From an uncultured Acidobacteriota bacterium (lineage in GTDB: Bacteria; Acidobacteriota; Thermoanaerobaculia; Multivoradales; UBA5704), in contig CAVYRF010000002.1 in NCBI GenBank assembly GCA_963770895.1, forward strand, positions 4,736,001 through 4,800,000: 64,000 nt of DNA. The letters are read 5' to 3'. Shown here one piece after another: positions 281-40,824 of this stretch. The notes below the pieces were generated by a model. That model was not told where the DNA came from, did no database searches, and saw only the letters and a list, made by a program, of their open reading frames with translations. The translations under genes were made by a program, and so were the position numbers. Position 1 is the first letter of the stretch; each line of letters opens with the position of its first letter.

Positions 281-1066
281 GTGGTCGAGCATCGCGCCCA
301 GCTGGGAGCGGTCGAGTGCATCGTCGAGGAGATGCTGGGTGACCAGGCTCTGCGCCGCTTCGCCGCCATGCGCGACGCGGTGCCGCTGCTGCTGCACGGC
401 ATCGGTCTGTCTCTGGGCAGCAGCGAGGGGCTCGACCCGGTGCGCCTGCGGCAGGTCGAGCGCGCGGTCCAGGCGCTGCGCCCGCCCTGGTTCTCCGAGC
501 ACATCGCCTGGACGCGGGCCGGCGGCGTCGACGTCGGCCACTTGACGCCCCTGCCCTTCACCCACGAAGCGGTCCAGACCGTCGCGCGCAACGTGGAGAC
601 CCTGCAGCGCGCCCTTCCCGGCGTACCGTTGCTGCTGGAAAACATCGCCTACACCCTGCCCTTGCCGGGCTCGCAGATGACCGAACCCGAATTTGTCCGC
701 GCCGTGGTCGAAGCCGCCGGCACCGGGCTGCTGCTCGACCTGGAGAACGTGCACGCCAACACCCTCAATCACGGCGGCGACGCGCTCGACGCCATCGCGG
801 CGCTCCCCCTGGAGCGGGTGGTCGAAGTCCACCTGGCCGGTGGTCTCTGGCAGGAAGGGGAGTACGCCGACACCCACACCCGCCCGGTGCCCGAGGAGTC
901 CTGGGCGCTGCTCGAATGGCTGGTGCCGCGAGCCCCCAACCTGGCGGCAGTGATCATCGAGCGCGACGACGATCTGCCGCCCTTCGCCGACCTGCTCGCC
1001 GAGGTGCGGCGAGCGCAGGGCATTCTCGATGCAGCTCGCCGACCTGCAACGCCAGCTGGCCGCTAG
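281..1066 (+). CDS. DUF692 family multinuclear non-heme iron oxidative enzyme (MNIO)
   Basis: Motifs LHG-LSLG, SEH, LLLEN, LDLEN, EVHLAG, DTH, IERD; N-terminus short (a strong-SD ATG at 219 is in another frame). Confidence 0.9.
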   Translation: MVEHRAQLGAVECIVEEMLGDQALRRFAAMRDAVPLLLHGIGLSLGSSEGLDPVRLRQVERAVQALRPPWFSEHIAWTRAGGVDVGHLTPLPFTHEAVQTVARNVETLQRALPGVPLLLENIAYTLPLPGSQMTEPEFVRAVVEAAGTGLLLDLENVHANTLNHGGDALDAIAALPLERVVEVHLAGGLWQEGEYADTHTRPVPEESWALLEWLVPRAPNLAAVIIERDDDLPPFADLLAEVRRAQGILDAARRPATPAGR

Positions 1067-1547
1067 CCTCACCGGCCGCAGCGGCCGCAGCGCCCCGCCG
1101 GCCGGTTGCGCCGCCACCGCCATCGCACGCGCCCGCCGCGCCCTCGCCGCCAAGCGCCGCCGCGCCGTCCGCCACCTGTTGCCGCGCACCGCGGCAGCCC
1201 TGGCGGGCCGCTGGGAGGCCTGCTGGGGTCCCCACTGCGACCGCTACACGCCCAGCGGCATGCTCTATCACGTGGACGATGCGTGGGAGCTCGCGGCGCA
1301 CCTGGCAGCAAGCCGGCCGCGAGCGCGAGAGCGCGGCGCCGTCGCCATCTCCCCAGAGGTCCGCAGCGCCGCCCACGACGACCTGGTGAGCCTGCGGCTC
1401 CGCTACAGCCGCAGGCGCAGGGTTGGAGGCCTGCGCATCCGCGAACGCCGCGGTGTTGTCGTCGCCTGGATCTCAACCCCGCGCCACACCCTGGTGATAC
1501 GGCTGCCCGGCCGCCGGGGGCTGCTGTGGCAATGGCGAGTGGGGTAG
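1029..1547 (+). CDS. Putative MNIO partner protein (SCO6045/DUF2063-like helical domain)
   Basis: Overlaps the DUF692 stop; 'LQRQLAASL...ALAAKRRRAVRHLLPRTAAAL' resembles partners found downstream of DUF692 genes. Confidence 0.65.
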   Translation: MQLADLQRQLAASLTGRSGRSAPPAGCAATAIARARRALAAKRRRAVRHLLPRTAAALAGRWEACWGPHCDRYTPSGMLYHVDDAWELAAHLAASRPRARERGAVAISPEVRSAAHDDLVSLRLRYSRRRRVGGLRIRERRGVVVAWISTPRHTLVIRLPGRRGLLWQWRVG

Positions 1548-1629
1548 TAGGCGCGGGCAAGGTTCTGGCCGGGAATCAAGAGGCAGTTGGGTGGGGAGTA
1601 AGGAGGAGGAGCAACCTGGCGCGGATTTG

Positions 1630-1801
1630 TTCGCAGGGCAGGATATTGCCCGAGCGCACACCGCGGGCTCAGGGATTGGCGAGTGCGCAGTCGAGTGGGC
1701 AATGTGTTCAGGTGGGGCAGAGGAGCTGGAGTTGGCGAGGTTGGCCGGATTGAGAAGCGCACGGGGGCCGCGGTGCGCGCGAGGCAAAGTTACCGAAGGA
1801 G
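1630..1801 (+). repeat. 170-bp hairpin repeat, copy R1
   Basis: TTCGCAGGG...GCGCACACCGCGGGCTCAGGG...GCGCACGGGGGCCGCGGTGCGCGCGAGGCAA...CGAAGGAG; matches R2-R5. Confidence 0.9.
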
Positions 1802-1876
1802 ATTGGGCGGGCAGACCCAAAGGAGCGAGGTGCCGGCCGACGCGGTTCCGCGCTGAGCCTGCGCTGCGAGTATTCT

Positions 1877-2116
1877 ATGTTCGATGATGCCAAGCCCAAG
1901 GCGCCCCTGGATTGCTGGCGGCTATGGAGAGAACGGCAACAACGTGCCGGTAGCGATCTCGATTCTTACCGCGCCAAGCTGGCAATCGAAACTCACCTGT
2001 CGCGGATCGCCCAGCATCGCCCTCTAGACTCGATTGTCGAGCCAGAATTGCGAGCTGCGGCTGCAGGCCTCCGCAAGTGGTTTTCCCAAGAGTTCTTTGA
2101 TGGCCTCATGGATTGA
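1877..2116 (+). CDS. Small hypothetical protein (possibly 5'-truncated)
   Basis: 79-aa ORF just downstream of R1, no clear SD. Confidence 0.4.
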   Translation: MFDDAKPKAPLDCWRLWRERQQRAGSDLDSYRAKLAIETHLSRIAQHRPLDSIVEPELRAAAAGLRKWFSQEFFDGLMD

Positions 2117-2405
2117 TGGTTCCCTCTGCCCGGACGTTGTTGTGCCTGCGTCTATCGACTCGCTGGCGGATCGGGTGGATTTCATCGTCCGCCTCTGCGG
2201 CGCCTGGGACTTCGGTGTGCTCCCAGGCCGCGCGACCCTCTCCGAAATCTGCCGGCCCGACTGGAGGGCGGCCATCGACGCGGCGCGCCTTCTCACCTCT
2301 CCCAGCTATCACCTGGTTCGCCGCTGGCACGGACTGGAACCTCAAACCTATTGTGGCCAGCAGCTTGCCTACATCCGCGACGATCCCAGCTTGAATTTCG
2401 TCTGA
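2100..2405 (+). CDS. Hypothetical protein
   Basis: ORF overlapping the previous stop; globular-looking sequence (LADRVDFIVRLCGAWDFG...). Confidence 0.5.
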   Translation: MASWIDGSLCPDVVVPASIDSLADRVDFIVRLCGAWDFGVLPGRATLSEICRPDWRAAIDAARLLTSPSYHLVRRWHGLEPQTYCGQQLAYIRDDPSLNFV

Positions 2406-2597
2406 CATGACCTTGCCATCCTGGCGCCTTGAGCGCCAGTGGGCGCCTGAAAAAATCTGCTCGGCGACGAGATCACGTAGGGCTCGCGGGCGCGCGCGTG
2501 GACTGCGCTAGCGTTTCGGGGGCCTTTGCCGCCTTGCCGCTCTTCCTCGCGGTAGGTCCTTGCCCTTCGACTCTCAATCCACTAGCTTGGATCATTG

Positions 2598-2626
2598 TTG
2601 ACAAGAAAAGTTGTCAAGGGTACCAT
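2598..2626 (+). promoter_or_regulatory. Sigma70 promoter overlapped by a palindromic operator
   Basis: TTGACA-17 nt-TACCAT; inverted repeat TTGACAA-GAAAAG-TTGTCAA at 2598-2617. Confidence 0.8.
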
Positions 2627-2632
2627 CGCCTT

Positions 2633-3235
2633 GTGCTCGACATCCAGGTCATCGATGATCCGGGCGTGGCGATGGTGGCCATGGAGCCGATGCGGAGTCG
2701 ACTGCTTTCCGAGCTGGCTGCGCCCGCCTCGGCGGCGACGTTGGCCGCGCGGGTTGGCTTGGCTCGGCAAAAAGTCAACTACCACCTGCACGCCCTGGAG
2801 GCGCAGGGGCTGGTGCGGCTGGCCCAGGAACGCAAGTGGGGCGGGCTGACGGAGCGGCTGCTCGTGGCGACGGCCGCGTCCTACGTCATTTCGCCGAGCG
2901 CCCTGGGTCCGGTCGCAGCGGATCCGAATCGGGAAATCGACAGGCTGTCCGCCAGCTATCTCATCGCCTTGGGCGCACGGGTCGTTCGCGAGGTGGGCGA
3001 TCTCGTTCGTCGTGCGCAAGACGCGGGCAAGCGCCTGGCGACCCTGGCGGTGGATACCGAGGTTCGCTTCCGGTCTGCGACGGACCGGGCGGCTTTCAGC
3101 AACGAACTCGCCGAGGCCATCACGAAATTGGTTGCGAAGTACCACGATGAAACCACCCCCGGCGGCCGCGCGCATCGCCTGGTGGTCGTGGCGCACCCCC
3201 TGCCGCAGAGAGCTGACCCCAAGGAGCCATCATGA
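2633..3235 (+). CDS. ArsR-type HTH transcriptional regulator
   Basis: RSRLLSELAAPASAATLAARVGLARQKVNYHLHALE wHTH; GTG start 7 nt after the -10 box. Confidence 0.88.
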   Translation: MLDIQVIDDPGVAMVAMEPMRSRLLSELAAPASAATLAARVGLARQKVNYHLHALEAQGLVRLAQERKWGGLTERLLVATAASYVISPSALGPVAADPNREIDRLSASYLIALGARVVREVGDLVRRAQDAGKRLATLAVDTEVRFRSATDRAAFSNELAEAITKLVAKYHDETTPGGRAHRLVVVAHPLPQRADPKEPS

Positions 3236-4056
3236 GCGTGAAGAAAGAAGCTTCCGGACGCCGTTCCGTCCAGGTCGAAGTCGAGGTCCCCGGCACGCCG
3301 GAGGAAGTCTGGCAGGCCATCGCCACCGGGCCGGGTATTTCGTCCTGGTTCGTGCCGACTGAGTTCGAGGAGCTCGACGGCAAGCCCGTAGCGGTGAAGT
3401 TGAGCTTCGGTCCGGGCATGGAGTCCCGTTCTGCCGTGACGGCCTGGGATCCGCCGCGGATGTTTGCCGCCGAGGCCGATGGCTGGGCTCCTGGCTCGCC
3501 GCCCATCGCGGACGAGTGGAGCGTCGAAGCGCGCGGGGGAGGCATCTGCGTCGTCCGCGTGGTGCATAGCCTCTTCGCCAGCACGGACGACTGGGACAAC
3601 CAGCTGGAAGGCACCGAATCCGGCTGGCCTGGCTTCTTCCGCATCCTGCGGATCTATCTCACGCACTTCCGCGGCCAACGCTCCGCGATGATGCAGTGGA
3701 TCGCCCCCGCCACGGGAACCGAAGCCGAGGCATGGGAAACGCTGACCGCGGCATTGGGGCTGAACGGCGTGAGCGCTGGGCAGAGTTGGGCCGCCCCGGC
3801 GAGCGTCCCTGCGCTCGGCGGCGTGGTGGAACACGTCAGCCAGAGTCCGTGCAATGCCCTGCTGCGGCTCGACAAGCCGGGGCCGGGCGCCGCCGCCCTT
3901 GGCGCTGTCAACTACGGCGGCGCAATCATGGTCACGCTGAGCTTCTACCTCTACGGCGATCAGGCGGCCGGGACCGCCGCCCGCGAGACACCGGTGTGGC
4001 AAGCGTGGATTCAAGAACGCTTTCCGGTGCCGTCGGAGACGAACAACAGTGAATGA
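3232..4056 (+). CDS. SRPBCC (AHSA1/START-like) domain protein
   Basis: EVEVPGTPEEVWQAIATGPGISSWF...SGW motif; ATGA overlap with the regulator. Confidence 0.88.
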   Translation: MSVKKEASGRRSVQVEVEVPGTPEEVWQAIATGPGISSWFVPTEFEELDGKPVAVKLSFGPGMESRSAVTAWDPPRMFAAEADGWAPGSPPIADEWSVEARGGGICVVRVVHSLFASTDDWDNQLEGTESGWPGFFRILRIYLTHFRGQRSAMMQWIAPATGTEAEAWETLTAALGLNGVSAGQSWAAPASVPALGGVVEHVSQSPCNALLRLDKPGPGAAALGAVNYGGAIMVTLSFYLYGDQAAGTAARETPVWQAWIQERFPVPSETNNSE

Positions 4057-4259
4057 TCGCGTGGTCATGGGAGCACACTCCCGTCGTTGCGCGTGATTGT
4101 CGAGCAACGCAAACGGTCGATCCCCGGCCAGTTGAGGGCCGGATGCCGTGGCGATGTCCGCAAGCGTGTGGCCCGCGTCGAGCGCCATCGATGTAAGACG
4201 CTCAGCCCGCCTCGGCACTATCGATTTCTCTGATACAGGCCACTTTATAGCTGCGTCAT

Positions 4260-4289
4260 GCGGTGGTGTCCTGGACAGGACACCACCGC
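4260..4289. other. Perfect 13-bp stem-loop
   Basis: GCGGTGGTGTCCT-GGAC-AGGACACCACCGC. Confidence 0.6.
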
Positions 4290-4391
4290 GCGGCACTGTG
4301 CCGCGTCGCGCCACGCCACGCCTTGACTTAAAATTGCAAGGCGGTATATACGTCGTTGCTGCAAACTGGCTGTGCTGCGAGGCCGAAACCT

Positions 4392-5789
4392 ATGTACCCT
4401 ATCTTTGCGACCGCTTGGGCCTTGGCCGTCCTTTTTCACCTGGCGACGCCGCACGGGGCCGAAAGGAACGCGGTCTCCGCGCTGCTGCTGGTCGCGGCGC
4501 TGGTCACGATCCTTTTCCCGGGCAACAGCTTGGCGCTGGTGACGCTGGCAGTGTGCCAGATCGCGCAGTTCTGGGAACGGCTCCCCATGCGAGCTCAGAC
4601 CAGCGAGTACTTCAAGTTCATTTGCGGTCTCTGCCTCATCGCCACGTACGTTCCCCAGGCATCGGCGCAGGGGACGGCGTCGATTGCGACCGACCTTTGG
4701 TTCGCGTCCTTCGCGCCGTTGTTGAGGCTGGCGACGAGCCTGCTGTTTTTTGCCTCGGTCCTGCACAAGCTCAATGCCGGTTTCTTCAGCTCCGAGCGCA
4801 GCCACGCCGGGAAGATCGTCGGGCCTCTCATATCCGCTCTCGGATTGCCAAGCCCCAGATGGTTGCGCGCGATGCTGCCCTACGCGACCGTGCTTGGCGA
4901 ATTCTTCATCGCGGCGGGCCTGCTCTTTCCGGCGACACGGGCAGCGGCCGTATGGACGTTGCTGCTGATGTTCTTTGCCGTCGGCCTGCGTGGGGTCGTC
5001 CAGTTTGCCTGGCTGATGTATGCCGTGGGGCTCCTGTTCTGCGACGATCGGGTGGCCGCTCGCGCCATGCCTTATGTGGCGACAACCTTCTCGGTTCGTC
5101 ACGTGCTCTTTGCGCTTGCCTGCTGCTTCTTTTTTCCCGCGGCCATCCTGCTGCGGCGGCGCGCGACCGCATTGCTGCTCCTGGTCAGTACCGTCGTGAT
5201 GGCTCTTGCCTTGTTTGCCTGGTCGGCGGCGGCCGTCACCGGTGCTCCCGCTCCCATGATATGGACAGGAGCAAGCTTGCCGCTGTCCACGGCTCAAATC
5301 GCCCTGCTGGTGCTCTTTTCGCTCAACGAGCTGGGGCCTTATGTTGGCTACAAGGACTGGCCGACCTTTCGCATGTACAGCAATCTCGAAAGCGGATTTA
5401 CCATCAATCACCTATTCCTGAGGGCTTGGCTTTTTACGCCATTTTTCAAGCGGCGGCAGGAGGTCCTGCTGTCGCCGTCCACCGTGAAGCGCATCCCCTA
5501 CCAGCGCTTCAGAGCCGGCGGCGACCTTTATCTGCCGTATAGCTCCCTGGCGGTGCTGGTCCGAGAGTTTGGCAAGGCGGGAGGGCCCCCCATGCCCATC
5601 CAATCTCCCGACCCGGGCAGCAGCGCCGCGACGGCCGCGGCGACCGCGGCGATTTCGACGACCGCGGCGCCCGGGGAGAATGCCGAGCGGACAGCAAGCT
5701 CGTGGTTGGATCTGCTCATGCCGCCGCGCTTCTTCTTCCACTATCCGTGCTCGCGGCCGCCACAAGCTCCGGAGCTCAAATCGCCCTAG
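4392..5789 (+). CDS. Polytopic membrane protein, HTTM-like
   Basis: Many hydrophobic segments; 'SVLHKLNAGFF' and 'GPYVGYK..TFRMYSNL' motifs. Confidence 0.65.
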   Translation: MYPIFATAWALAVLFHLATPHGAERNAVSALLLVAALVTILFPGNSLALVTLAVCQIAQFWERLPMRAQTSEYFKFICGLCLIATYVPQASAQGTASIATDLWFASFAPLLRLATSLLFFASVLHKLNAGFFSSERSHAGKIVGPLISALGLPSPRWLRAMLPYATVLGEFFIAAGLLFPATRAAAVWTLLLMFFAVGLRGVVQFAWLMYAVGLLFCDDRVAARAMPYVATTFSVRHVLFALACCFFFPAAILLRRRATALLLLVSTVVMALALFAWSAAAVTGAPAPMIWTGASLPLSTAQIALLVLFSLNELGPYVGYKDWPTFRMYSNLESGFTINHLFLRAWLFTPFFKRRQEVLLSPSTVKRIPYQRFRAGGDLYLPYSSLAVLVREFGKAGGPPMPIQSPDPGSSAATAAATAAISTTAAPGENAERTASSWLDLLMPPRFFFHYPCSRPPQAPELKSP

Positions 5790-5906
5790 CCAGGGCGTCC
5801 TCTCGATATCGGCTCGGTCGTCACCTGCGCCGGCGCGGTTCCCTTCGGTAGCGCCTGGGGTGGGGGTAGCTGCCCCCGGCCAGGCCCGTCAGGTAGGGGC
5901 GAGCAT

Positions 5907-6076
5907 TTCGAAGGGCTGGCGGTTGCCCGAGCGCGCACCGCGGGCTCAGGGTGTGGCGAGTGCGCGGTCGCGTGGGCAAGGATTAAGGTAAGGCAGGGAG
6001 AGGGAGTGGGCGTTTTCGGTCGGGGTGAGAAGCGCACGGGGGCCGCGGTGCGCGCGAGGCAAAGAAATCGAAGGAG
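5907..6076 (+). repeat. 170-bp hairpin repeat, copy R2
   Basis: Same conserved arms as R1. Confidence 0.9.
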
Positions 6077-6100
6077 ATACTCGTATGCTGGAGGTTCCCT

Positions 6101-6319
6101 ATGAAGAACATCACCTTGAGCGCCGACGAAGACCTGATCGAAGCCGCACGCGCCCGTGCGCGGGCCGAGCACACCACGCTGAATGAGCAGTTCCGCCGCT
6201 GGCTGGGCGAATACACCCAGCGCCAGAAGCAAGCGGACGCAGCCTTGGCAGTGATCGACGAGTTGCGCGGCAAGCTGCGCACCGGGGGGCGCCGCTTCAC
6301 TCGTGGGGAAGATGAATGA
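6101..6319 (+). CDS. Antitoxin (RHH/CopG-like, VapB type)
   Basis: MKNITLSADEDLIEAARARA...FTR; GGAGG SD; overlaps the PIN start. Confidence 0.8.
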   Translation: MKNITLSADEDLIEAARARARAEHTTLNEQFRRWLGEYTQRQKQADAALAVIDELRGKLRTGGRRFTRGEDE

Positions 6320-6412
6320 ACGCTGATTTTCTCGACACCAACATCTTCGTCTATCTGTTGGACGAGACCGACGAACGCCGCCGCGAGATCGCGCGGCGCC
6401 TGGTCCACGCGG
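6316..6412 (+). pseudogene. Truncated PIN-domain (VapC) toxin, first ~32 codons only
   Basis: MNADFLDTNIFVYLLD PIN N-terminal motif; similarity stops at the 45-bp repeat. Confidence 0.8.
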
Positions 6413-6453
6413 CCGCGCAGCGGGCCGGGAAGGCGACGGTCGGACAGGTGGCG
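6409..6453 (+). repeat. 45-bp repeat, copy A
   Basis: 43/45 identical to 9792-9836. Confidence 0.85.
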
Positions 6454-6969
6454 TCAGGGTTTAAGGCTGTAGGCCGCGGCCATCGCGCCGGCGCCAGCCT
6501 GGTACTTGCGGGCGCGGGCCAGTTCGGCGATCTGGCGGATGTGGCCGAGGTCGTGGAGCGCCCATTCATTCAACATCTGCGACATGGTGATCTCGCCATA
6601 CTCCTTATGCACGGCGAGGCGATCGCCGGCACCGGCGGGGAGGTTGCGGAGGAAGTCGATGTTGTGCTCGCGCTGCTCCTCGAAGTGATCGATGGCATCC
6701 TCGGGGTCGGCATCGCGATAGAGGTCGAGGTACATCTGAGCGTCGTCGGGCTCGAACTGGGGACGGGTTTCCGCCATGAAACGATCGAGGCGCATGCGGT
6801 AGCAGTCGCCTTCGGAGTGCGACAGGTGGGCCAGCACCTCGGCGACGGAGAAGCGTTCGGGCGCCGGCTTCCAGCGGGCGTCCGCATCGGTCAGCTCCGT
6901 CATCAGGGCGCGGAGAATTCGAGGCGTGGCCTCCAGCAGGTCCAGGCAGGGCAGTCCGTTTTCCGTCAT
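6454..6969 (-). CDS. DinB family protein
   Basis: FSVAEVLAHL...WALHDLGHIRQI His triad. Confidence 0.88.
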   Translation of the reverse strand: MTENGLPCLDLLEATPRILRALMTELTDADARWKPAPERFSVAEVLAHLSHSEGDCYRMRLDRFMAETRPQFEPDDAQMYLDLYRDADPEDAIDHFEEQREHNIDFLRNLPAGAGDRLAVHKEYGEITMSQMLNEWALHDLGHIRQIAELARARKYQAGAGAMAAAYSLKP

Positions 6970-7083
6970 GGGTTTATCCTACGACGTTGTCGCCGCCATC
7001 GACATGGCGGGTGTTGCCTGCCGGAGAGGCGATGAGTAGCCTGGGCGAGCCGGACCGCAACGGGGCCGGCTCGCCGATTGTGG

Positions 7084-7332
7084 CTAACAGACCGGCGAAG
7101 AGTGGTGCAGGACGTAGGCCGATTGGGTGCCGTAGCACTCGCAGTCGCCGCAGTCGTTCTGGCACGAGCCCACGACGGTGGTGTAGGTGTCGTCCGAGTA
7201 GTACACCCAGGTGTCCAGCTCGGTGTCGCGCGGATTGCAGTAGAAGGTCGCATGCGCCAGGGGCGGGGCTGTCGCCAGAGCTGCCAGGGTCAGTACGGCG
7301 ATCAGGCAGACAAAACGTCTTGCGGTCGTCAT
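7084..7332 (-). CDS. Small secreted Cys-rich protein (DUF6289-like)
   Basis: Signal peptide ending AHA; YYSDDTYTTVVG..CQNDCGDCEC; AAGGA SD. Confidence 0.75.
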   Translation of the reverse strand: MTTARRFVCLIAVLTLAALATAPPLAHATFYCNPRDTELDTWVYYSDDTYTTVVGSCQNDCGDCECYGTQSAYVLHHSSPVC

Positions 7333-7927
7333 GGCCATTCCTTTCGGGGTTGAAGCCGGATGTCGCACCTTGCGGCCGGCGGTCAGTAGCAGATCTGGGC
7401 TGGGTTGCCCCAGCCGATGGACTTTCCAATCTCACCTTAGTTTAGTGCCTGCCATACATCAGCAGCAACACGCGGGAGAGCCCGGCGCTTCGCGGTGCGC
7501 CGCGAGGGTTTTCTTGAAAATCCGCGGATCGCCGCGCCGGTCTTTGCCGCGCCGGAGGTTCCCGCGACTCAGCAAGCTCGCCGCCACCGGCGGGCAAGGG
7601 TCCGCCGCGCCTGCCGGCGGTGCGGAGGTCTGTCCGATGGCACGCCTTCCGAGCTTCCAGCCCGCGCCGCAACCTGCGCAGGTGGTTTGTGCGGACCCCG
7701 CAGCGATGCGGCGTACGCCGGCCAGGCTGAGTTCTTCGTCTGTGGCTCGGGACTGCGCTGCCTGGCGCAAGGCACGTGCAGGGCCACCTCCAGGACGCGG
7801 TGCAGGTGCCTCATCATCCAGGCCCCGCACCGGGTGTGCCCCGCGCTGGCGCTGGCGTAAGGGGTCGCTTGGGGCGTGTCCGGGGCCGTGGCAGGTGACA
7901 GCGCCGAGCGGGCCGGCGGGGTGTCTG

Positions 7928-8097
7928 TTCGCAGGGCTGGCTGTTGAGCGAGCGCGCACCGCGGGCTCAGGGTTTGGCGAGTGCGCGGTTGCGTGGGCAA
8001 GGGTGCTGGTGGGGCAGGCGGACGGCTCTGGCGCGATGGGCCGGGGGGAGGAGCGCACGGGGGCCGTGGTGCGCGCGAGGCACAAGAATCGAAGGCG
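7928..8097 (+). repeat. 170-bp hairpin repeat, copy R3
   Basis: Nearly identical to R4, including flanks. Confidence 0.9.
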
Positions 8098-8130
8098 AGC
8101 GGGCGGGCGAGACGACGCGGGCGACGGCTT

Positions 8131-9585
8131 TTACGCGTACTCGAAAAGCGCCATGAAACCGAAGTCCATGTGCAGCTGCTGGTGGCAGTGGAAGAGGGTG
8201 CGGCCGGGATTGTCGGCGACGAAGTCGAAGGAGAGCTCCTGGAACCCACCCAGCATCACGACATCTTTGATGACGCCGGCGGTCGCCTTGCCGCCGATGT
8301 TGGTCAGCTCGAAGCTGTGCCGGTGTAGGTGCAGCGGGTGGATGTCGTCGCTTGCGTTGCGGACATTCACCCGGTAGCGGCGTCCCTGATGGATCGTGTA
8401 CGTGGGTTGCAAGGGGTCCATCGAGAAGGGTTTGCCATTGAGCGTCCAGACATTGAAGCCGTGTGCGGCGGCGTTGTGTTTGACGATCGTGATGTCGATC
8501 GTCTCGTCGGGCGTTGCCGTGGATGGACCGAGCTTGCCAAAGCGGGTATAGGCCCAATGGAAAGGCTTGGGTTTGATCCAGTGCGGCTTGCCGCCGCGGC
8601 CAGCGTATTCGACGACGGTCCCCATGCCATGACGGCGGTCGTCGTCGGCGAGATCGCCCATGACCCAGACGCCCGGGTGATTCATCTCGACGATCGCGGA
8701 GATGCGCTCGGCCGTGCCCAGCCATAGCACCGGCACCTCGGCTGGTGTCGGCACCGGGTTGCCGTCGAGCGCCACCACGCGGAAGACGTGCCCGGGCAAC
8801 GCGAGGCTGCGAATCTCCGTCGCGCTCGCGTTGAGCACGTGGAACAGCACCCGCTCTCCTTGCTTGACGCGGATCGGCTGGCCATGCCCGAGCATGACTC
8901 CATTGATGCTGAACAGCTCGTAGCCGACCTCGAATCCCTTGGGCGTAGCCTTGGAAGCCGCGTCGGCGGCGTTTCCGATCTGCTTGAGCTCGGCGAGCGG
9001 ATTGCCGGCAAGGCAATCCATCGCCATGTCGCCGCCGCGGCTGAAGGCCGGCGCGAACTCCTTCATCACCAGGAAGATCTCCCGATCGTAGGCGCCGGGA
9101 TCGCTGGCGGGCTCGATGTAGACCGGACCGGCCTGGCCGGTGTAGGTGCCGCGGTTGAGGTCGCTCCCGGCGATGACGTGCGTGTGATAAAAGCGGAAGC
9201 CCGCCGGCTTCGGCACCCAGGCAATCCGCCGCCGGCCGTGCGCGGGAACGAAGGGCGAACCTTCCTCGGCTGCGCCGTCGACGTCGGTCGGGATCTTCTG
9301 GCCGTGCCAATGGACCAACTCCGGCGTGTCCGTGTCGTTGAGGATGTCGACCACCACCCGCCGGCCTTCGTGCAAACGGAGGAGCGGTCCCGGGAACTGG
9401 CCGTTGTAGAGCGTCGTGGACACGATATGGTCCGGCGCGACCTCGACCAGCCCGGTAGCGATGCGCAACGTGTAGTCGGCCTGCTCATCGGTGGCTGCGT
9501 CGACAGCTCGTGCAAAGCGCGGCAAGGCGCCAAGGAGCGGCACCAGCCCGGCAAGCTTGAGCAGCGAACGGCGATCGATCGTCAT
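8131..9585 (-). CDS. Tat-exported multicopper oxidase
   Basis: DRRSLLK Tat motif; HWH, HTH, HPLHLH and HCHQQLHMDFGFM copper motifs. Confidence 0.93.
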   Translation of the reverse strand: MTIDRRSLLKLAGLVPLLGALPRFARAVDAATDEQADYTLRIATGLVEVAPDHIVSTTLYNGQFPGPLLRLHEGRRVVVDILNDTDTPELVHWHGQKIPTDVDGAAEEGSPFVPAHGRRRIAWVPKPAGFRFYHTHVIAGSDLNRGTYTGQAGPVYIEPASDPGAYDREIFLVMKEFAPAFSRGGDMAMDCLAGNPLAELKQIGNAADAASKATPKGFEVGYELFSINGVMLGHGQPIRVKQGERVLFHVLNASATEIRSLALPGHVFRVVALDGNPVPTPAEVPVLWLGTAERISAIVEMNHPGVWVMGDLADDDRRHGMGTVVEYAGRGGKPHWIKPKPFHWAYTRFGKLGPSTATPDETIDITIVKHNAAAHGFNVWTLNGKPFSMDPLQPTYTIHQGRRYRVNVRNASDDIHPLHLHRHSFELTNIGGKATAGVIKDVVMLGGFQELSFDFVADNPGRTLFHCHQQLHMDFGFMALFEYA

Positions 9586-9791
9586 GGTCGATTTCCTCAC
9601 CGAGGTGTGGCGCCTGGGGAACCCTGGACGCCTGCTGAGCCCTCCGTATGCACCCGCGTGACCGGAGGAGGCGGGGCGGTTCTACAATGCTGTGGATCGC
9701 CTGCGGCGCCGAGGGTGGTAGCGACCCCGCCGCCGCTTCCTTTGAGCACCAACGTGGCAATGATACCGCTCCCATGAGCAGTGGCTCGCCA

Positions 9792-9836
9792 GCGGCCGGG
9801 CAGCGGGCCGGGAAGGCGACGCTCGGACAGGTGGCG
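9792..9836 (+). repeat. 45-bp repeat, copy B
   Basis: 43/45 identical to 6409-6453. Confidence 0.85.
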
Positions 9837-10148
9837 GGGACCGCCGGCGGCGTGCCGCGTGCCGTCTGGTTGGAGCCGGGTGCACACTGCACATCCGCTG
9901 ATCCGGCGCTGCGCCGGAGATGGTTGGAGTGTAGTGTGCGGAGCCGAGAGGGCTTGCCTTCCCGGCCCCGGTTGTGGGTGCCAGGGATCGTTGCCGAGTG
10001 AGGATCTACTACAATACCGCTAGCGCGTCCGCCTGCGGAGGCGAAGAAGGAGACGTGCCTGGTTGCGGCACCTCCGATGTCCAAGCTGACCGCCTGCGGC
10101 GGCGGCTTGGCTTGAGCGCGATGGGCCACCGCCAAGAGGTCGGGCGAC

Positions 10149-10658
10149 ATGTCTGGGATAAAACATCATCGATGGAGCTTTGCGTTCCGCCGGCCTCGAG
10201 CTGCGAGTTGGTGCTGGCGCTGCTGCTTGGCGCTGGCGCTGCTTGAGGCGGGTTGTGTCGTCCATTGGCATCCGCCGCCCCAGGGGGCAGGCGGCGCTTG
10301 GGACCCGGCTGCTCACCCCGAGCTGCCCGCAGTTGAGGTGGTGGCGAGCGGGCAGGTGGTGCGGTCTTACAGGACGATCGGTACCGTGCATGCCCTCGGA
10401 TCGATGGGGGAGCAGGAGGCCTTGATCGTGCTGAGGCAGGAGGCGCAGGCGCTGCGCGGCGACGCCCTGCTCAACGTCCACAGGCGTGGCTTGACCGCCA
10501 CGACCCTCGACGCGTCCACCAGTCTGGCCGAGCAACTGTGGGAGGCTACCGTGATCGTGTGGACGGATCCTCCCGCAGAAGCCGTGGCGCCGGAAGCGCC
10601 GAGTGCGCCGCCGATTCCGCATCGTGGCGAGTGGCGACTTGGAGCCGGGCGGCTGTAG
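10149..10658 (+). CDS. Putative lipoprotein (YbjQ-like fold)
   Basis: LEAGC lipobox-like; 'YRTIGTVHA...LRQEAQALRGDALLNV' pattern. Confidence 0.55.
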   Translation: MSGIKHHRWSFAFRRPRAASWCWRCCLALALLEAGCVVHWHPPPQGAGGAWDPAAHPELPAVEVVASGQVVRSYRTIGTVHALGSMGEQEALIVLRQEAQALRGDALLNVHRRGLTATTLDASTSLAEQLWEATVIVWTDPPAEAVAPEAPSAPPIPHRGEWRLGAGRL

Positions 10659-10714
10659 AACGCGGGACATCCGCGCCGGCTGCCGGCGCTGCGGGCGCTG
10701 GCCAGCGACCCGTT

Positions 10715-10927
10715 ATGACAATCGGACTCGACGATCGCTATCGTGACGAAAACGGACGGATCCATGCAAAGCGTGGCGATACACTTGTACGGACACTCCG
10801 CGGAATATACGGCTCGAGCTTTGCCGCGGGATTTCCTGCCGATACGACGCTGGACCGATTGCTCGATGGAACCGGTTTCTCATCGCTGAGCCAATATGTG
10901 AAGCATCACGGGCATTCCCAAGGGTAG
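10715..10927 (+). CDS. Small hypothetical protein
   Basis: MTIGLDDRYRDENGRIHAKRGDTLVRTLRGIYG...SLSQY; compact 70-aa ORF. Confidence 0.65.
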   Translation: MTIGLDDRYRDENGRIHAKRGDTLVRTLRGIYGSSFAAGFPADTTLDRLLDGTGFSSLSQYVKHHGHSQG

Positions 10928-10984
10928 CGGCAAGCCCGCGCGCCGCCGCTGCGGCCGGGCGGCATCGATCGAGTGCCAGCGCGG

Positions 10985-11314
10985 TGACCCGCACGGCGGC
11001 TTGCCAGAGCGGCCGGATGAAGGGCTCGCAGCGCGCTTCATGGCGACTGTCGGCGCTTGCCACACCGACGACGTCCCGTCCCAAGCGCGCGGCTTCGTCG
11101 AGAAAGCCGCCCGAGTAACACTGATCGGCGATCAGGATCAATCGCGCGAAGGGGAGCGGCGCCAGAAGGAGGAGGAAGGCGCCAGCCGTGATCAGACCAC
11201 TTTCCAGATTGAGAAAGGGGGGCCGAAGGCGCGCCCGCCATGGCCGGTGAGATAGACGAGCAGCAGGTCTTGTGGCCGTATCTCGCGGCGCAATAGCTCC
11301 ACGGCTTGGTCGAG
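10985..11314 (-). pseudogene. Clan CD (C13/caspase-like) cysteine peptidase fragment
   Basis: LLVYLTGHGG and ILIADQCYSGGF dyad motifs in two frames, joined by one shift near the G6 run at 11217-11222; 5' end replaced by R4. Confidence 0.7.
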
Positions 11315-11330
11315 GCCGGCGGGGTGTCTG

Positions 11331-11500
11331 TTCGCAGGGCTGGCTGTTGGGCGAGGGCGCACCGCGGGCTCAGGGTTTGGCGAGTGCGCGGTTGCGTGGG
11401 CAAGGGTGCTGGTGGGGCAGGCGGACGGCTCTGGCGCGATGGGCCGGGGGGAGAAGCGCACGGGGGCCGTGGTGCGCGCGAGGCATAAGAATCGAAGGCG
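11331..11500 (+). repeat. 170-bp hairpin repeat, copy R4
   Basis: Same conserved arms as R1. Confidence 0.9.
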
Positions 11501-11581
11501 AGTGGGCGGGCGCGCCGACGCGGGCTTGGCCTTTGTGCCACCTGGCGCGGCCGCGGTGTTTCGTCATGGATTGCGACCGCG

Positions 11582-11597
11582 TTGGCACAGTATTGGT
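11582..11597 (+). promoter_or_regulatory. Possible sigma54 -24/-12 promoter
   Basis: TTGGCACAGTATTGGT; one mismatch (C>G at -12) to TGGCAC-N4-TTGC. Confidence 0.35.
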
Positions 11598-11627
11598 TGC
11601 GGGGCGAACACCCAAGGAGAACACGCC

Positions 11628-11783
11628 ATGAAAAAGCAGATCCGCCACCTGTTGCTCCATCGCGAGACCCTGCAGAACCTGAACGCTGCGAACCTGCCCA
11701 GGGCGGTCGCCGGCGCCGCGACCTCGCCGCCGGTGTGCGAGAACAGCGGCAACGCCATCACCCACTGCACGGGCTGCTGCTAG
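11628..11783 (+). CDS. RiPP (lanthipeptide-like) precursor peptide 1, 51 aa
   Basis: AAGGAG SD; MKKQIRHLLLHRETLQNLNAANLPRAVAG-AATSPPVCENSGNAITHCTGCC. Confidence 0.8.
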   Translation: MKKQIRHLLLHRETLQNLNAANLPRAVAGAATSPPVCENSGNAITHCTGCC

Positions 11784-11979
11784 GTAGCCGCCAGCGATCG
11801 CACCGGGCCGGCTGCGGCCGGCCCCGCCTCGGGCGCTTCAGGTGCGCCGCTGCCGGCGGCAGCGCACCTCGGCGAGGTCTGGGGCACCCGCATCCGGGCC
11901 ACCTATCCGCAGTCGCAGCCCGGGACGTCCGGGAGCCGGGAGCGGCGGCGCCGGGGCCGCAAGCCCGGCGCGGTTTGTG

Positions 11980-12150
11980 TTTGCAGGGCTGGCTGCTACC
12001 CGAGCGCGCACCGCAGGCTCAGGGTTTGGCGAGTGCGCGGTGGAGTCGGCAATATTTCTGGTGGGGCGGATGGATGGAGTTGGGAGCTATCGGCCGGAGT
12101 GCGAAGCGCACGGGGGCCGCGGTGCGCGCGAGGCAAGAGATTCGAAGGAG
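11980..12150 (+). repeat. 170-bp hairpin repeat, copy R5
   Basis: Same conserved arms as R1. Confidence 0.9.
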
Positions 12151-12313
12151 CTAGGGGGGCTGGATCTGGCAGGGTCGTTCCCCCGTTCCCCCGTTCCCCG
12201 AAAGGAAGGCAGCGCCGGCAGGCGTTCTCATTCGCCCCTCCGCTGTCTCGCATCCGAGAGGCGTGGGCACCCGACTTGATGGGACGCTACTCGAATCCGG
12301 AAAGGAAAAGCCC

Positions 12314-12460
12314 ATGAGAAAGACCCTGAAGCCCATCCGCTTGCAGCGCGAGACCCTGAAGCATCTGACCGATGGCACGCTCGACAAGGTGCGCGCCGCC
12401 TGGCGCGAGAACACCAACTACATCAGCTGCCCGAATCCGCAGACCTGCCTCGGCTGCTGA
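12314..12460 (+). CDS. RiPP (lanthipeptide-like) precursor peptide 2, 48 aa
   Basis: AAGGA SD; MRKTLKPIRLQRETLKHLTDGTLDKVRAA-WRENTNYISCPNPQTCLGC. Confidence 0.8.
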   Translation: MRKTLKPIRLQRETLKHLTDGTLDKVRAAWRENTNYISCPNPQTCLGC

Positions 12461-12891
12461 GCCCCCTGCCTGCACAAGAAGGCCGATCGCCGGCCCGGCC
12501 GGCCCGCTGAGCGATTGCGGGCAGGCCGCGCAGTCGACGATTTCGGGAGCCAGGAGATCGCCGGCAATCGCCAAGTCCATTTGGCCCTGCTTGCCCAGGA
12601 AGCGTGCGCAAGTGGAGGTAGGCTTCGACGGCCGCCGCGGCCGGTGCAGCGCCACCATGTGACGGAAATGGTCGGGACCGCCGGCGTAGGCCGTGAGTGA
12701 ACATCTGCTGCCTTGATTGCGGTGCGTTCGGCGTTACTGGCGGAATGGCTGAGGGCGGGGGGGCGGGGGCAGTGGTGGGATGTGATGTCGCTGCTGGGAG
12801 GCGGTGCAGGAGGGGATGGGGGGGGAGGTGGCGGCGCTGGCGGCTGCTGGCGTCCGACCAGGGCAACCATGTATAACCTGTACAGGCCGTC

Positions 12892-14136
12892 GTGGCCTGG
12901 ACCGAGCTGGTAAAGTTGTACGAGCCGCACATGCAACCAACCACCAGAGCCGACGTGGCACCGCAACTCCTTCGCTGGGCGCGCGAGACCGCCGGTCTCT
13001 CCGCCGAGGAAGCTGCGCGCCAGCTCGGGGTCAAGCCAGACCGCCTGGGCGAATGGGAAGCAGGGCAGCTCAGTCCGACTGTGCCTCAGTTGCGCAAGGC
13101 TGCGGCCATGTACAAGCGGTCTCTGGCGACGTTCTTCCTGGCCGAACCGCCGGCGACGGCGGCGCCCCCCCACGACTTCCGGCGACTTCCCCCGGAGGGA
13201 CGCGGCGAGGCTGCGCTGTCTCCGGCCTTGCTTCTCGCCATTCGCCGAGCGAACCGCCGCCGCCGCATCGCGGTCGAGCTGGCGCGCGAGAACGGCGCTT
13301 CGCCTCAGCCGTTTTCGGTTCGCGGGGAGCCGAGCGACGACGAGGAGCTGGGCGCTCGCCTGCGGTCGTTCCTCGGCGTGGCGCTCGACGACCAGATGAA
13401 GTGGAGAGGAGACTACCAGCCGCTCAACGCCTGGGTCGCGGCACTCGAATCAAGGGACGTCCTGGTGTTTCAGGCAAGCCACATCTCGGTAGGGGAGATG
13501 CGCGGCTTCTCGATCAGCGAGCGCACCTTCCCAGTGATTGTCCTCAATTCCAAGGACTCGCCCCGCGGGCGGGTATTCACCCTGATGCACGAGCTGGTCC
13601 ACCTGGCCCTGAGCGAAGGCGGTGTCTGCGATCCGCTGGAAGCCCGCCGTGGCGCCCACAGCCGGGACGACGAGGTCGAGGTCTTTTGCAGTCGCATCGC
13701 CGGCGCGGTCCTGGTTCCGGCCGAGGCGCTGCTGGCGCCGCCACTGGTGCGCGCCGCCGCGCAGCCGCAGGAATGGGACGACTCGGAGCTGCATCGGCTG
13801 GCGCAGTTTTTCGGGGTCAGCGACGAGGTGATTCTGCGGCGCCTGCTCATCCTGCGGAAGACCACCGAGGCGTTTTATGAGGCCAGGCGCCGCGCCTACC
13901 AGAGAGCCTACACGGCGATGAGGATCGCAGACGCGGCCAAGCCGATACGGATTCCACCGTCCGTGATCGTGGTGCGCAACAATGGGCGCCTTTACACTCG
14001 GTTAGTTCTGGCAGCGCTCGACAGCGACAGGATCACCTTTGCCGACGTTGCCGACTATCTGGGCACAAACCTCAAGCACCTGGACGCGATTGCCGATCTG
14101 GTCGGAGCCGCGCGTCCCGCCGAGGCCATGGTGTGA
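12892..14136 (+). CDS. XRE HTH + ImmA/IrrE family metallopeptidase
   Basis: LRWARETAGLS...WEAG HTH; RVFTLMHELVH HExxH motif; start may be ATG 12931. Confidence 0.9.
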   Translation: MAWTELVKLYEPHMQPTTRADVAPQLLRWARETAGLSAEEAARQLGVKPDRLGEWEAGQLSPTVPQLRKAAAMYKRSLATFFLAEPPATAAPPHDFRRLPPEGRGEAALSPALLLAIRRANRRRRIAVELARENGASPQPFSVRGEPSDDEELGARLRSFLGVALDDQMKWRGDYQPLNAWVAALESRDVLVFQASHISVGEMRGFSISERTFPVIVLNSKDSPRGRVFTLMHELVHLALSEGGVCDPLEARRGAHSRDDEVEVFCSRIAGAVLVPAEALLAPPLVRAAAQPQEWDDSELHRLAQFFGVSDEVILRRLLILRKTTEAFYEARRRAYQRAYTAMRIADAAKPIRIPPSVIVVRNNGRLYTRLVLAALDSDRITFADVADYLGTNLKHLDAIADLVGAARPAEAMV

Positions 14137-14162
14137 CAGTTTATGTGGTGGATAGCAGCGCC
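14133..14162 (+). pseudogene. N-terminal stub of a DUF4411/PIN-like partner
   Basis: GTGA overlap, then VTVYVVDSSA, resembling a PIN first strand plus Asp. Confidence 0.45.
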
Positions 14163-14201
14163 GAAGGCTGTGCTCCATCGCTGAGAGGCGGAGGACCGTC
14201 G

Positions 14202-15407
14202 TCATGGAGATCCGAGGACCGCCGGAGAGGATGATGCGGGACCTGAGGACGACGCAAGATTGACCATTTCTCTGATCGAATCGATGACCTCTCGCAGTAA
14301 CTTCAAGGAGATTGTCAGCTCGTACTCGTAGGCTGCTAAAGCCTCGCCAAGGTTCTTCTTTGGTTGGTCGAGCATGGCAGGCAGGTTCGAGACCGTCATC
14401 CGGTATTCCGCTAGAGTTGGTAGTGCGCTGGCCGTGGCAACCTCAGATTCAGTTAACGCTTGGAGTAGTGAACTGAGATATCCAGCTGCCATCCCGCCTG
14501 CGACCAGTGTGGAAATGATTGCAGCCAATCGTCCGTACGCGAGAGAGCCGTTCGCCCTAGAGAGCCGGAATGTGGGCAGCTCAAAGCGTAGGCGCTCAGC
14601 AAATTCGGTCATACATTTCGACACGCGCTCTACCGAGCGTTTTGTGAACGCCATGGCATCCGCCATGCTTCCAGTGCTTCTAATGGCGTTCAATTGCACT
14701 GTCTCGGCGCTCATCAGCTGCGTCATCTGGCGGATTAGAAGAGTAACCCGCTCTGTCGCCCTCGTACTTCTCTCGGTCTCAGAAGCAGACCACTCGCTGG
14801 TTTCCCGCAGATCTGCGCTCATTCCAGTGGCGCCAGTGGCCGGAATAAGCTTTGCTCCGTCAGACGCATTACGCCAAGCTCTTGCGATCTTTTGCAGAGT
14901 CCTTGATAGATGAAACCGTAGGAGCGATTCGAACTGCTCGGTGTCACTAAACGACCAATCGAGCAAGCCAAGGTTCCTGGTGCCTTCTCGAAAAGACCGA
15001 ACCTTCGCCAGCTGGTCGATGTTCACGTCAAAGGGCAGCGCGGCTTCCTTGAAGTAGAGCATAATTGCTGGCCTACCATCAGGGACTGACCGGTTCTGAT
15101 AGGCTCTTTTGAACTCTTCTTCCGTTCCCGATTCAGCCCGTGGAGTGGGAGTGCCAAATCGCGACCATAAAATTCCGAGAAAAATGTCATGATCGTTCCC
15201 AAGCTGTTCATTAAGAACAGCCTGTGCGTCAGAGCCAGCGGCGGGATAACCATGGGTCTCCCAGCGGATAACCTCGATATTGAAGCCCAGCACTTCAGAC
15301 CATAGCGCATTGAGCTCGATGACTACTCTTGTAGCTACCGCTCGCTCGGCAGTCACATCATTGGGCGAGGACACAAACACGCGGATACGTGGAAATCCTT
15401 CGATCAT
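14202..15407 (-). CDS. DUF4062 (TIR/NDT-like) domain protein with helical C-terminus
   Basis: RVFVSSPNDV.AER...DIFLGILWSRFGTPT..SGTEEEF; visibly lower GC than flanks. Confidence 0.85.
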   Translation of the reverse strand: MIEGFPRIRVFVSSPNDVTAERAVATRVVIELNALWSEVLGFNIEVIRWETHGYPAAGSDAQAVLNEQLGNDHDIFLGILWSRFGTPTPRAESGTEEEFKRAYQNRSVPDGRPAIMLYFKEAALPFDVNIDQLAKVRSFREGTRNLGLLDWSFSDTEQFESLLRFHLSRTLQKIARAWRNASDGAKLIPATGATGMSADLRETSEWSASETERSTRATERVTLLIRQMTQLMSAETVQLNAIRSTGSMADAMAFTKRSVERVSKCMTEFAERLRFELPTFRLSRANGSLAYGRLAAIISTLVAGGMAAGYLSSLLQALTESEVATASALPTLAEYRMTVSNLPAMLDQPKKNLGEALAAYEYELTISLKLLREVIDSIREMVNLASSSGPASSSPAVLGSP

Positions 15408-15482
15408 AGAGCACCGAGTTTTCTACGTTGGTCAGGGGCAAGAGCTCGTTTAGTCTTTGCTTGCGGGGTTTGGATTGCAGTG

Positions 15483-15668
15483 CGAAGGTCCGCGCGTTGT
15501 CAGGATGTGCGCGTGGTGGGTCAGCCGATCCAGCGAGGATCCGCGGCCCGGCTGCTGATTCCCGCACCGGGGACACAGCTTGCGGCAGATGTCACCGACT
15601 GGCGTATCGGCTTCTGACTGCCGGAGCGCCATGGCGATCTGCTCCCCCGTGAACCGGCTGTTCCTCAC
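15483..15668 (-). mobile_element. Chimeric IS scar: IS3-family OrfA N-terminus + IS21 IstB C-terminal fragment
   Basis: VRNSRFTGEQIAMALRQSEADTPVGDICRKL followed by LDRLTHHAHILTTRGPS. Confidence 0.75.
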
Positions 15669-15784
15669 TGGGCTGCCCCCTTCCCCGTCGGGAGCTGGGG
15701 GGACCGCGTACCAGCTATTCCGAGAGTCGCTCTGGTCCAAGATCCGGGGCTACCCACCCAATTAATTGTATTACCCTTAAAGAG

Positions 15785-15856
15785 TATCCCCAACGGGATT
15801 CGAACCCGTGTTGCCGCCTTGAAAGGGCGGAGTCCTAACCACTAGACGATGGGGAC
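15785..15856 (-). tRNA. tRNA-Glu (anticodon UUC), CCA not encoded
   Basis: GTCCCCA acceptor stem, D arm, CCGCC-CT-TTC-AA-GGCGG anticodon arm, GGTTCGAATCC T loop. Confidence 0.97.
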
Positions 15857-40668: not shown

Positions 40669-40824
40669 CTAAGGGCAAATCGTCGAAGTGCACGTCGGGC
40701 AGGTCGTCTGAGCATAGCTGGTCAGGCAGACGCCTCCATTGAGCTTCTTGAGCAGGGCGGGATTCAAGTGGTGCAGGGTTTCCCGCGAGAGCTTCAGGGT
40801 TTTCCTCGGTCCGCTCTTTTTCAT
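40669..40824 (-). CDS. RiPP (lanthipeptide-like) precursor peptide 3, 51 aa (not in ORF track)
   Basis: TAAGGAGG SD; MKKSGPRKTLKLSRETLHHLNPALLKKLNGG-VCLTSYAQTTCPTCTSTICP*. Confidence 0.88.
   Translation of the reverse strand: MKKSGPRKTLKLSRETLHHLNPALLKKLNGGVCLTSYAQTTCPTCTSTICP

Follow-up and report, generated by a model that had tools for sequence, protein, structure and literature searches.

A 64-kb window of the chromosome of an uncultured Acidobacteriota bacterium (class Thermoanaerobaculia; assembly GCA_963770895.1, contig CAVYRF010000002.1, positions 4,736,001 to 4,800,000) carries, within an accessory island of low GC content, five copies of a non-coding repeat, termed R (R1–R5), whose closest resemblance is to selfish palindromic repeats, of which it would form a new family, and not to an integron. 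R is tentatively, and with somewhat less than even confidence, interpreted as a lineage-restricted family of palindromic repeats resembling REPINs or miniature inverted-repeat transposable elements (MITEs), the copies of which may act as recombination junctions.

A repeat search of the window yielded five in-register copies (1612-1803, 5889-6078, 7910-8099, 11313-11502, and 11962-12152), separated, from start to start, by 4277, 2021, 3403, and 649 nt. An nhmmer profile built from R1–R5 recovered exactly five matches from the 64 kb, all on the plus strand (E values from 5e-50 to 1.5e-49); no sixth copy was found in the window on either strand, the next-best match being noise (E 0.31). The original prediction, made from the nucleotide letters and a list of open reading frames (ORFs), of five co-oriented copies was thus confirmed, with start positions agreeing within 4 nt, as was its statement that the remaining 52 kb contain none. 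The conserved unit of R is somewhat longer than the 170-172 bp assigned to it: the core comprises 175–179 nt and, together with its flanks, 210–222 nt. Homology among all copies extends over ∼210 nt, and R3 and R4 are 95–97% identical over 221 nt. Pairwise identities are star-like (76–79%), with R3–R4 as the single young pair (97%), and the flanks of R1, R2, and R3 are related neither to each other nor to the units formed by R4 and R5 with the peptide genes behind them (pep1 and pep2; Table 1). If orientation were random, finding all five copies on the same strand would, by simple arithmetic, have a probability of 0.06.

Several copies border on other features. R1 starts 65 nt past the stop codon (1547) of the partner gene of an MNIO enzyme and marks the left edge of the island. 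The homology of R3 and R4 stops exactly at the stop codon of a multicopper oxidase gene (8131-8133); this codon lies 33 nt from the R3 core (∼35 bp predicted). A terminator-like hairpin (11948-11971) adjoins the 5′ edge of R5. Directly after R5, the sequence CGTTCCCC occurs in three perfect tandem copies (12176-12199), which do not match the R profile.

Table 1. Copies of R and other features of the island and its surroundings (window coordinates).
Feature	Position	Strand	Remarks
R1	1612-1822	+	Core 1626-1804; arms 1654-1666 and 1768-1780
R2	5889-6098	+	Core 5904-6079; arms 5931-5943 and 6043-6055
R3	7910-8131	+	Core 7924-8098; arms 7952-7964 and 8064-8076
R4	11313-11534	+	Core 11327-11502; arms 11355-11367 and 11467-11479
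R5	11962-12172	+	Core 11976-12153; arms 12004-12016 and 12117-12129
Low-GC accessory island	1548-15783		Holds all five R copies
RiPP maturase pair	281-1547	+	Left neighbor of the island; MNIO/DUF692 enzyme overlapping a 172-aa partner gene
R1–R2 segment			Unsupported 79-aa ORF, ArsR-type HTH, SRPBCC protein, 477-aa membrane-type protein
R2–R3 segment			72-aa antitoxin-like ORF (6101-6319), truncated PIN gene, DinB_2 (−), DUF6289-like ORF (−)
R3–R4 segment			Multicopper oxidase (8131-9600, −), two small ORFs, caspase-like fragment (−)
Caspase-like peptidase pseudogene	∼10950-11330	−	Frameshifted, 5′-truncated, ends at the left edge of R4
pep1	11628-11783	+	51 aa, ends CTGCC; 126 nt past the R4 core
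pep2	12314-12460	+	48 aa, ends CLGC; 161 nt past the R5 core
HTH_XRE + peptidase M78 protein and DUF4062 protein	12892-15407		Convergent pair, right of pep2
tRNA-Glu (UUC)	15784-15856	−	Right edge of the island
Third gene of the peptide family	40669-40824	−	Own promoter-like region and ribosome-binding site, no R
HTH, helix-turn-helix; RiPP, ribosomally synthesized and post-translationally modified peptide.

R is non-coding because one-base indels shift the reading frame between the copies and break any common frame, as had been proposed from the sequence; moreover, no Pfam family was matched in any frame across any copy, and a coding repeat is thereby ruled out. The predicted nested-hairpin anatomy was also found in the alignment. 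Outer arms of 13 nt, mutual reverse complements with short GC palindromes inside each, recur in every copy with no more than one mismatch and account for 10 of the 16 matches to the arm in the window, the remaining six being near the chance level (3.5 ± 1.8). They enclose an inner 6-bp helix, invariant across the copies, and a variable center. Between independent copies, identity amounts to 85–93% in the left block and 87–95% in the right block, to 56–66% in the center, and to 50–81% in the outer flanks. When R4 was dropped as a near-duplicate of R3, 16 of 93 columns varied in the arms compared with 28 of 45 in the center (R1, R2, R3, and R5; Fisher P = 2e-7). The contrast implies that the arms matter for something, but it fits recognition by a mobilizing enzyme, recognition by a recombinase, and RNA folding alike and cannot discriminate between them.

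Signs that the structure is under selection are weak. RNAalifold predicted 43 pairs: an outer helix of 16 pairs (12 of which never vary), the inner helix of 6 pairs, and weaker apical pairs within the variable center; between the two helices, a conserved 17-nt stretch on the 5′ side lies opposite five G residues on the 3′ side. Whether folded as RNA or as DNA, the plus strand always showed the arms paired in a helix of 13–16 bp. Nevertheless, the folding energy of R3 RNA corresponded to z-scores of only −1.05 (plus strand) and −0.48 (minus strand), while DNA folds of the five plus strands ranged from −0.46 to −3.08. With only five sequences, the share of paired cells was barely above that in column shuffles (88.8% vs 87.4 ± 0.9%; 40 of 500 shuffles reached the observed value), and changes in the outer helix are uncompensated, with three mismatches and one G-U pair common to R3 and R4. 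The plus strand of R is rich in G (43–50%, with 20–23% C), and the local GC skew is +0.35 to +0.40 compared with +0.064 for the whole window.

According to the available part of their description (Bertels & Rainey, 2011, PMC3116915), REPINs, REP doublets that form hairpins, consist of two highly conserved inverted regions around a less conserved spacer and are predicted to fold into a long hairpin as single strands. R resembles them in its conserved inverted arms, its less conserved spacer, and its hairpin (the outer helix forms in all five plus-strand folds), as well as in being non-coding, extragenic, and clustered, as REPINs can be. It differs from REPINs as they appear there in the distance between arm starts (∼115 nt in R; 71 or 110 in the paper), its conserved asymmetric flanks, its conserved 17-nt internal loop, the single strand shared by all five copies, and the lack of a RAYT gene in the window. 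The affiliation with REPINs or MITEs, one of the options originally put forward, consequently holds for the REPIN anatomy but not for terminal inverted repeats, target-site duplications, or a RAYT within the window. ERIC/Correia-type repeats are imperfect, intergenic palindromes of 100–200 nt, which can be co-transcribed with neighboring genes; they are found in Proteobacteria, in both orientations and at many loci. They can be likened to R (by description only; named in PMC3575422) as imperfect intergenic palindromes, whereas R occurs in a single orientation and in Acidobacteriota; no resemblance in sequence would be expected.

Each unit of R consists of two conserved reverse-complementary arms, a center of ∼45 nt free to diverge, and additional conserved asymmetric flanks. 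If R is such a repeat family, an enzyme from another part of the genome, or else recombination, would have spread its copies within an island gained by horizontal transfer, and these copies may now provide portable homology for the insertion, duplication, and deletion of DNA segments; a cassette-like partition with gene fragments at the repeat edges could arise in this way without integron machinery. Mobility of R, an enzyme acting on it in trans, and a part in recombination are inferred; several features of the region fit a repeat that is first copied and later used as a junction: R is a discrete unit present in five copies with unrelated flanks and star-like identities plus one young pair, and this recent pair, R3/R4, brackets 3.2 kb. 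A caspase-like gene breaks off at the left border of R4, and mosaic fragments occur, including a duplicate of 45 nt from a PIN gene. This direct repeat (6409-6453 and 9792-9836; 96% identical) brackets 3.3 kb including R3; its first copy makes up the final 45 nt of the truncated PIN gene, and the second lies ∼190 nt upstream of the oxidase start. The original prediction had R4 cutting a peptidase gene: a gene fragment does end at R4, but it is frameshifted, 5′-truncated, and only weakly recognizable as caspase-like (metacaspase-4, E 0.032; no Pfam match), with the regions of its His and Cys motifs distributed over two frames. The missing 5′ part of this gene was not found on the other side of R4.

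An R3/R4-type copy was also found in an environmental contig. With the translation of R3 as protein query, a single match was obtained among 1,835,955,588 representatives (E 5.8e-7), namely a spurious ORF of 209 aa on a contig of 2357 nt, which is identical at 28 of 39 aa across the left arm and the R3/R4-type center. This shows, at the level of a translated match, that R exists outside the source genome, although such a match is no gauge of abundance. Further searches with translated R (other frames or length ranges; 33 and 25 candidates) gave no match, but this route is insensitive, as it missed the window's own copies too. Blastn of R against plasmid and phage collections was equally negative. 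No published repeat family for Thermoanaerobaculia and no description of an R-like element was found in the literature outside subscription journals.

Several observations weigh against assigning R to a family of mobile palindromes. The ends of the unit are not complementary; the inverted arms are internal, ∼25–40 nt inside, so that the terminal inverted repeats characteristic of MITEs are absent, and the five pairs of flanks show no target-site duplication. R is asymmetric and all copies lie on one strand, unlike typical REPINs. Neither a copy nor a solo arm was detected above chance in the 48 kb of core sequence, and the 24-mer invariant in R1–R5 had no exact match in one genome each for 185,579 species, a set that evidently does not include the source genome. 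The copy count refers to 64 kb of the 5.83-Mb contig, so that R is at most a candidate for a dispersed repeat family. Conservation of the arms relative to the center would also fit a site functioning in place. Finally, no tyrosine or serine recombinase, integrase, RAYT, or IS200/IS605 TnpA was detected among 147 stop-to-stop frames (1400-15800; minimum length 60 aa), and no recombinase or transposase in 54 ORFs of the region 1–17.7 kb or in 21 core ORFs; likewise, a search for a RAYT/TnpA or recombinase gene flanked by R, suggested as a check of the original prediction, found none within the window. The initial impression that no transposase is visible therefore holds for full transposases and recombinases in the 147 frames, but a weak IS3-type HTH fragment is present (15453-15749, minus strand). 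R is tentatively placed as a new family within the palindromic intergenic repeats, with a modest chance that it is something more unusual. Thermoanaerobaculia are abundant and barely studied, and a searchable model of R would aid genome annotation, avoid spurious ORF calls across the repeats, and mark recombination-prone islands.

R could alternatively be a cis-acting regulatory module, serving as a common 5′ leader RNA or as a “mobile promoter,” that jointly controls the plus-strand genes of the island via its stable hairpin and G-rich sequence. Arms conserved in place would suit such a function, and a plus-strand ORF follows four of the five copies at a distance of 22–161 nt; this placement, however, is near expectation because most island genes are on the plus strand anyway, and R3 faces a convergent gene. 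Behind R2, the motif GAAGGAG at the 3′ end of R precedes the start codon (ATG) of the 72-aa ORF by 8 nt and would make a well-spaced ribosome-binding site, but it is mutated in R3 and R4, and in R1 and R5 no start codon is found at a usable distance. A scan for σ70-like promoters (1400-13000) returned two sites (1.0 ± 1.0 expected), none of them inside R. Intrinsic terminators were not found inside R either, the eight terminator-like sites (one of which adjoins the 5′ edge of R5) comparing with 7.2 ± 2.1 expected. The weak folding z-scores and the uncompensated stem changes also argue against a leader RNA, as does the lack of any Rfam match. At gathering score, a tRNA was the sole match to Rfam; at E values up to 5, five weak matches were obtained in 1400-12600, none within an R core, and one (6097-6188) touching the last two bases of the extended R2. 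These covariance-model scans thus assigned R to no known RNA family. For a structured non-coding RNA, another option of the original prediction, no positive support was thus obtained, given the missing Rfam match, a folding energy not clearly superior to that of shuffled sequences, and stems that are invariant or uncompensated.

Homologous sequence upstream of unrelated genes has already been described (PMC3575422), in the form of putative mobile promoters (Nijveen, Matus-Garcia & van Passel, 2012). Like R, these are stretches of very similar non-coding DNA before unrelated genes in one genome, with an unrecognized mechanism of movement; unlike them, R has no recognizable promoter, its distance to the start codon varies from 22 to 161 nt, and one copy faces a convergent gene. 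The criterion for mobile promoters is a stretch of ≥50 nt that is ≥80% identical between non-paralogous genes and lies in the range from −150 to −50. In their 3′ blocks, R1 and R2 share 84% identity across 82 nt; relative to the ORFs that follow, these blocks occupy −155 to −74 and −104 to −23, respectively, which leaves only ∼50 homologous nt inside the range for both copies.

The peptide genes allow a more specific version of this idea to be assessed. As predicted, peptide genes lie next to copies of R, pep1 after R4 and pep2 after R5. R is not a dedicated leader of such genes, however, because the third member of the family, at 40.7 kb, has a promoter-like region of its own and no R. Altogether, a regulatory function of R appears unlikely; if real, it would add a new regulatory RNA in front of defense, toxin–antitoxin, and RiPP-like genes. 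The three peptides themselves share a leader motif (K..L.L.RETL..L) and Cys/Thr/Ser-rich C-termini and look like precursors of lanthipeptide-type RiPPs. Neither Pfam nor NCBIfam contains a family that they match, and the window ORFs scanned include no lanthipeptide synthetase; in the Atlas clusters nearest to pep1, a leader domain of class I lanthipeptides is present (score 0.85), which is considered a lead only.

The accessory genes between the copies gave rise to another explanation, in which R is the recombination site of an integron-like cassette system that uses a different site and a recombinase encoded elsewhere. R together with its cargo would then enter as circles by site-specific recombination within R, and the array would be an analogue of the integrase-less attC clusters called CALIN. 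As had been noticed at the outset, the cassette-like partition of heterogeneous, low-GC cargo is real, with toxin–antitoxin, defense, and unassigned types represented; the nearly identical R3 and R4 bracket a segment of 3.2 kb, and the position of the oxidase stop codon exactly at the end of the R3/R4 homology also speaks for this explanation. The segments between copies, on the other hand, are multi-gene, occupy both strands, and contain gene fragments and pseudogene pieces, tyrosine and serine recombinases, including pseudogenes, were absent from the 147 frames and the core ORFs scanned, and R3 and R4 differ by scattered point changes, not as reciprocal chimeras.

According to the available part of the study of Cury et al (2016, PMC4889954), conserved boxes surround a variable terminal structure in attC sites, much as the arms of R surround its center, and no feature of these sites is better conserved than the AAC/GTT triplet. 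Paired cores (RYYYAAC and GTTRRRY) were present in zero of the five copies on either strand, in line with the original prediction, and by its core motifs R is thus not an integron attC; R3 and R4 each carry a single GTTRRRY without a partner. Integrase-less clusters are common and chromosomal integrons exist in Acidobacteria, as stated in the accessible portions of two reports (PMC4889954; PMC8352920). R shares with attC arrays and CALIN, as characterized there, the same-strand repeats, the paired conserved boxes around a variable center, the heterogeneous accessory genes, and the lack of an integrase nearby. R differs from them in having no AAC/GTT triplets, in its paired region of ∼127 nt with ∼100 nt between the outer arms, and in segments that are multi-gene, mixed-strand, and interspersed with pseudogenes. 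When such site clusters are defined by a minimum of two same-strand sites with a spacing of less than 4 kb, R2–R5 group together (2021, 3403, and 649 nt), whereas R1 falls outside (4277 nt). An integron integrase (PF00589 plus the IntI-specific domain) or its pseudogene, which a complete integron would have close by but a CALIN can lack, was absent from the frames and ORFs scanned.

Of the non-canonical recombination site that had been envisaged, then, the cassette-like partition stands, but no dedicated recombination system and no paired attC cores were found with it, and a cassette system of this kind is regarded as rather unlikely. Still less probable, though more far-reaching, is the notion that R is the attachment site of a non-integron gene-cassette platform of Acidobacteriota, a second and independently evolved form of cassette capture; its recombinase, encoded elsewhere and possibly acting on single-stranded DNA, would recognize the folded nested hairpin and stack R-plus-cargo units beside tRNA-Glu. 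If true, this would be a route of gene capture outside the integron paradigm. Repeats of the att type derived from the tRNA itself are ruled out: the 20-mer at the 3′ end of tRNA-Glu occurs once in the window (at most three mismatches allowed), and R is not tRNA-like.

That R is the best-preserved remnant of old segmental duplications, without any activity of its own, is also improbable: R4-pep1 and R5-pep2 do resemble an old tandem duplication (the leaders of the peptides are 34% identical over 29 aa, and the spacers are faintly alike), but R1, R2, and R3 have flanks that resemble neither one another nor the peptide units, conservation is far stronger in the arms than in the center, and R itself (76–79%) is far better conserved than the adjoining coding sequence, which argues against passive decay.

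The palindromic repeat family favored here would reside in an island that was most likely acquired horizontally. Embedded in a soil-type Acidobacteriota chromosome, the island looks foreign: its cargo has a GC content of 62–67%, compared with 72–73% in both flanks, and the codon-position signal is weak. The ArsR-SRPBCC and DinB cargo predicted between the copies was recovered by family matches. The predicted toxin–antitoxin cargo holds up weakly, and only after R2, where the antitoxin-like ORF precedes the N-terminus of a VapC-like PIN gene that breaks off after 46 codons (E 0.002, short of the Pfam cut-off); the ORFs right after R1 match no family. The protein of 477 aa in the R1–R2 segment (4356-5789, plus strand) matches no Pfam family either, its nearest Atlas clusters being unnamed bacterial proteins as well as LMF1, HTTM, and MauE types (score 0.91–0.96). 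A clear gene of the lipase-maturation-factor (LMF1) family is present in the core (46712-48232, plus strand).

To the left of the island, the MNIO enzyme belongs to the MbnB/TglH/ChrH family (E 8e-74) and is BufB-like, albeit below the NCBIfam cut-off; its partner has no Pfam family. The corresponding precursor gene presumably lies upstream of the window start. Relatives of the enzyme at 66–84% identity include several named Thermoanaerobaculia, and 19 loci with such relatives (67–80% aa identity; 264,530 nt) were used for comparison. By tblastn of 24 window proteins, the MNIO enzyme was found in 19 of the 19 loci and its partner in 14, the other 22 proteins in none. R was not detected in these loci (best cmsearch E 0.54 among 24 matches at E up to 10; sole nhmmer match E 7.5), and no tRNA-Glu was present in the 16 of the 19 loci that were scanned for it. 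For the closest relative (80% identity), the contig breaks off 61 nt beyond the gene.

At the opposite edge of the island, the IS3-type fragment adjoins the 3′ end of tRNA-Glu, the place where an island integrase normally sits; it resembles the HTH of a transposase OrfA (HTH_Tnp_1, E 4e-4, below the cut-off). Between pep2 and the gene for the HTH_XRE + M78 protein, a very G-rich tract (12700-12850; GC skew +0.51), which does not match the R profile, lies upstream of the latter. Both members of the convergent gene pair that follows match candidate anti-phage defense models of PADLOC, the HTH_XRE + M78 protein that of RmrA (2e-18) and the DUF4062 protein that of PDC-S60 (1e-47), in the latter case with its N-terminal 170 aa only.

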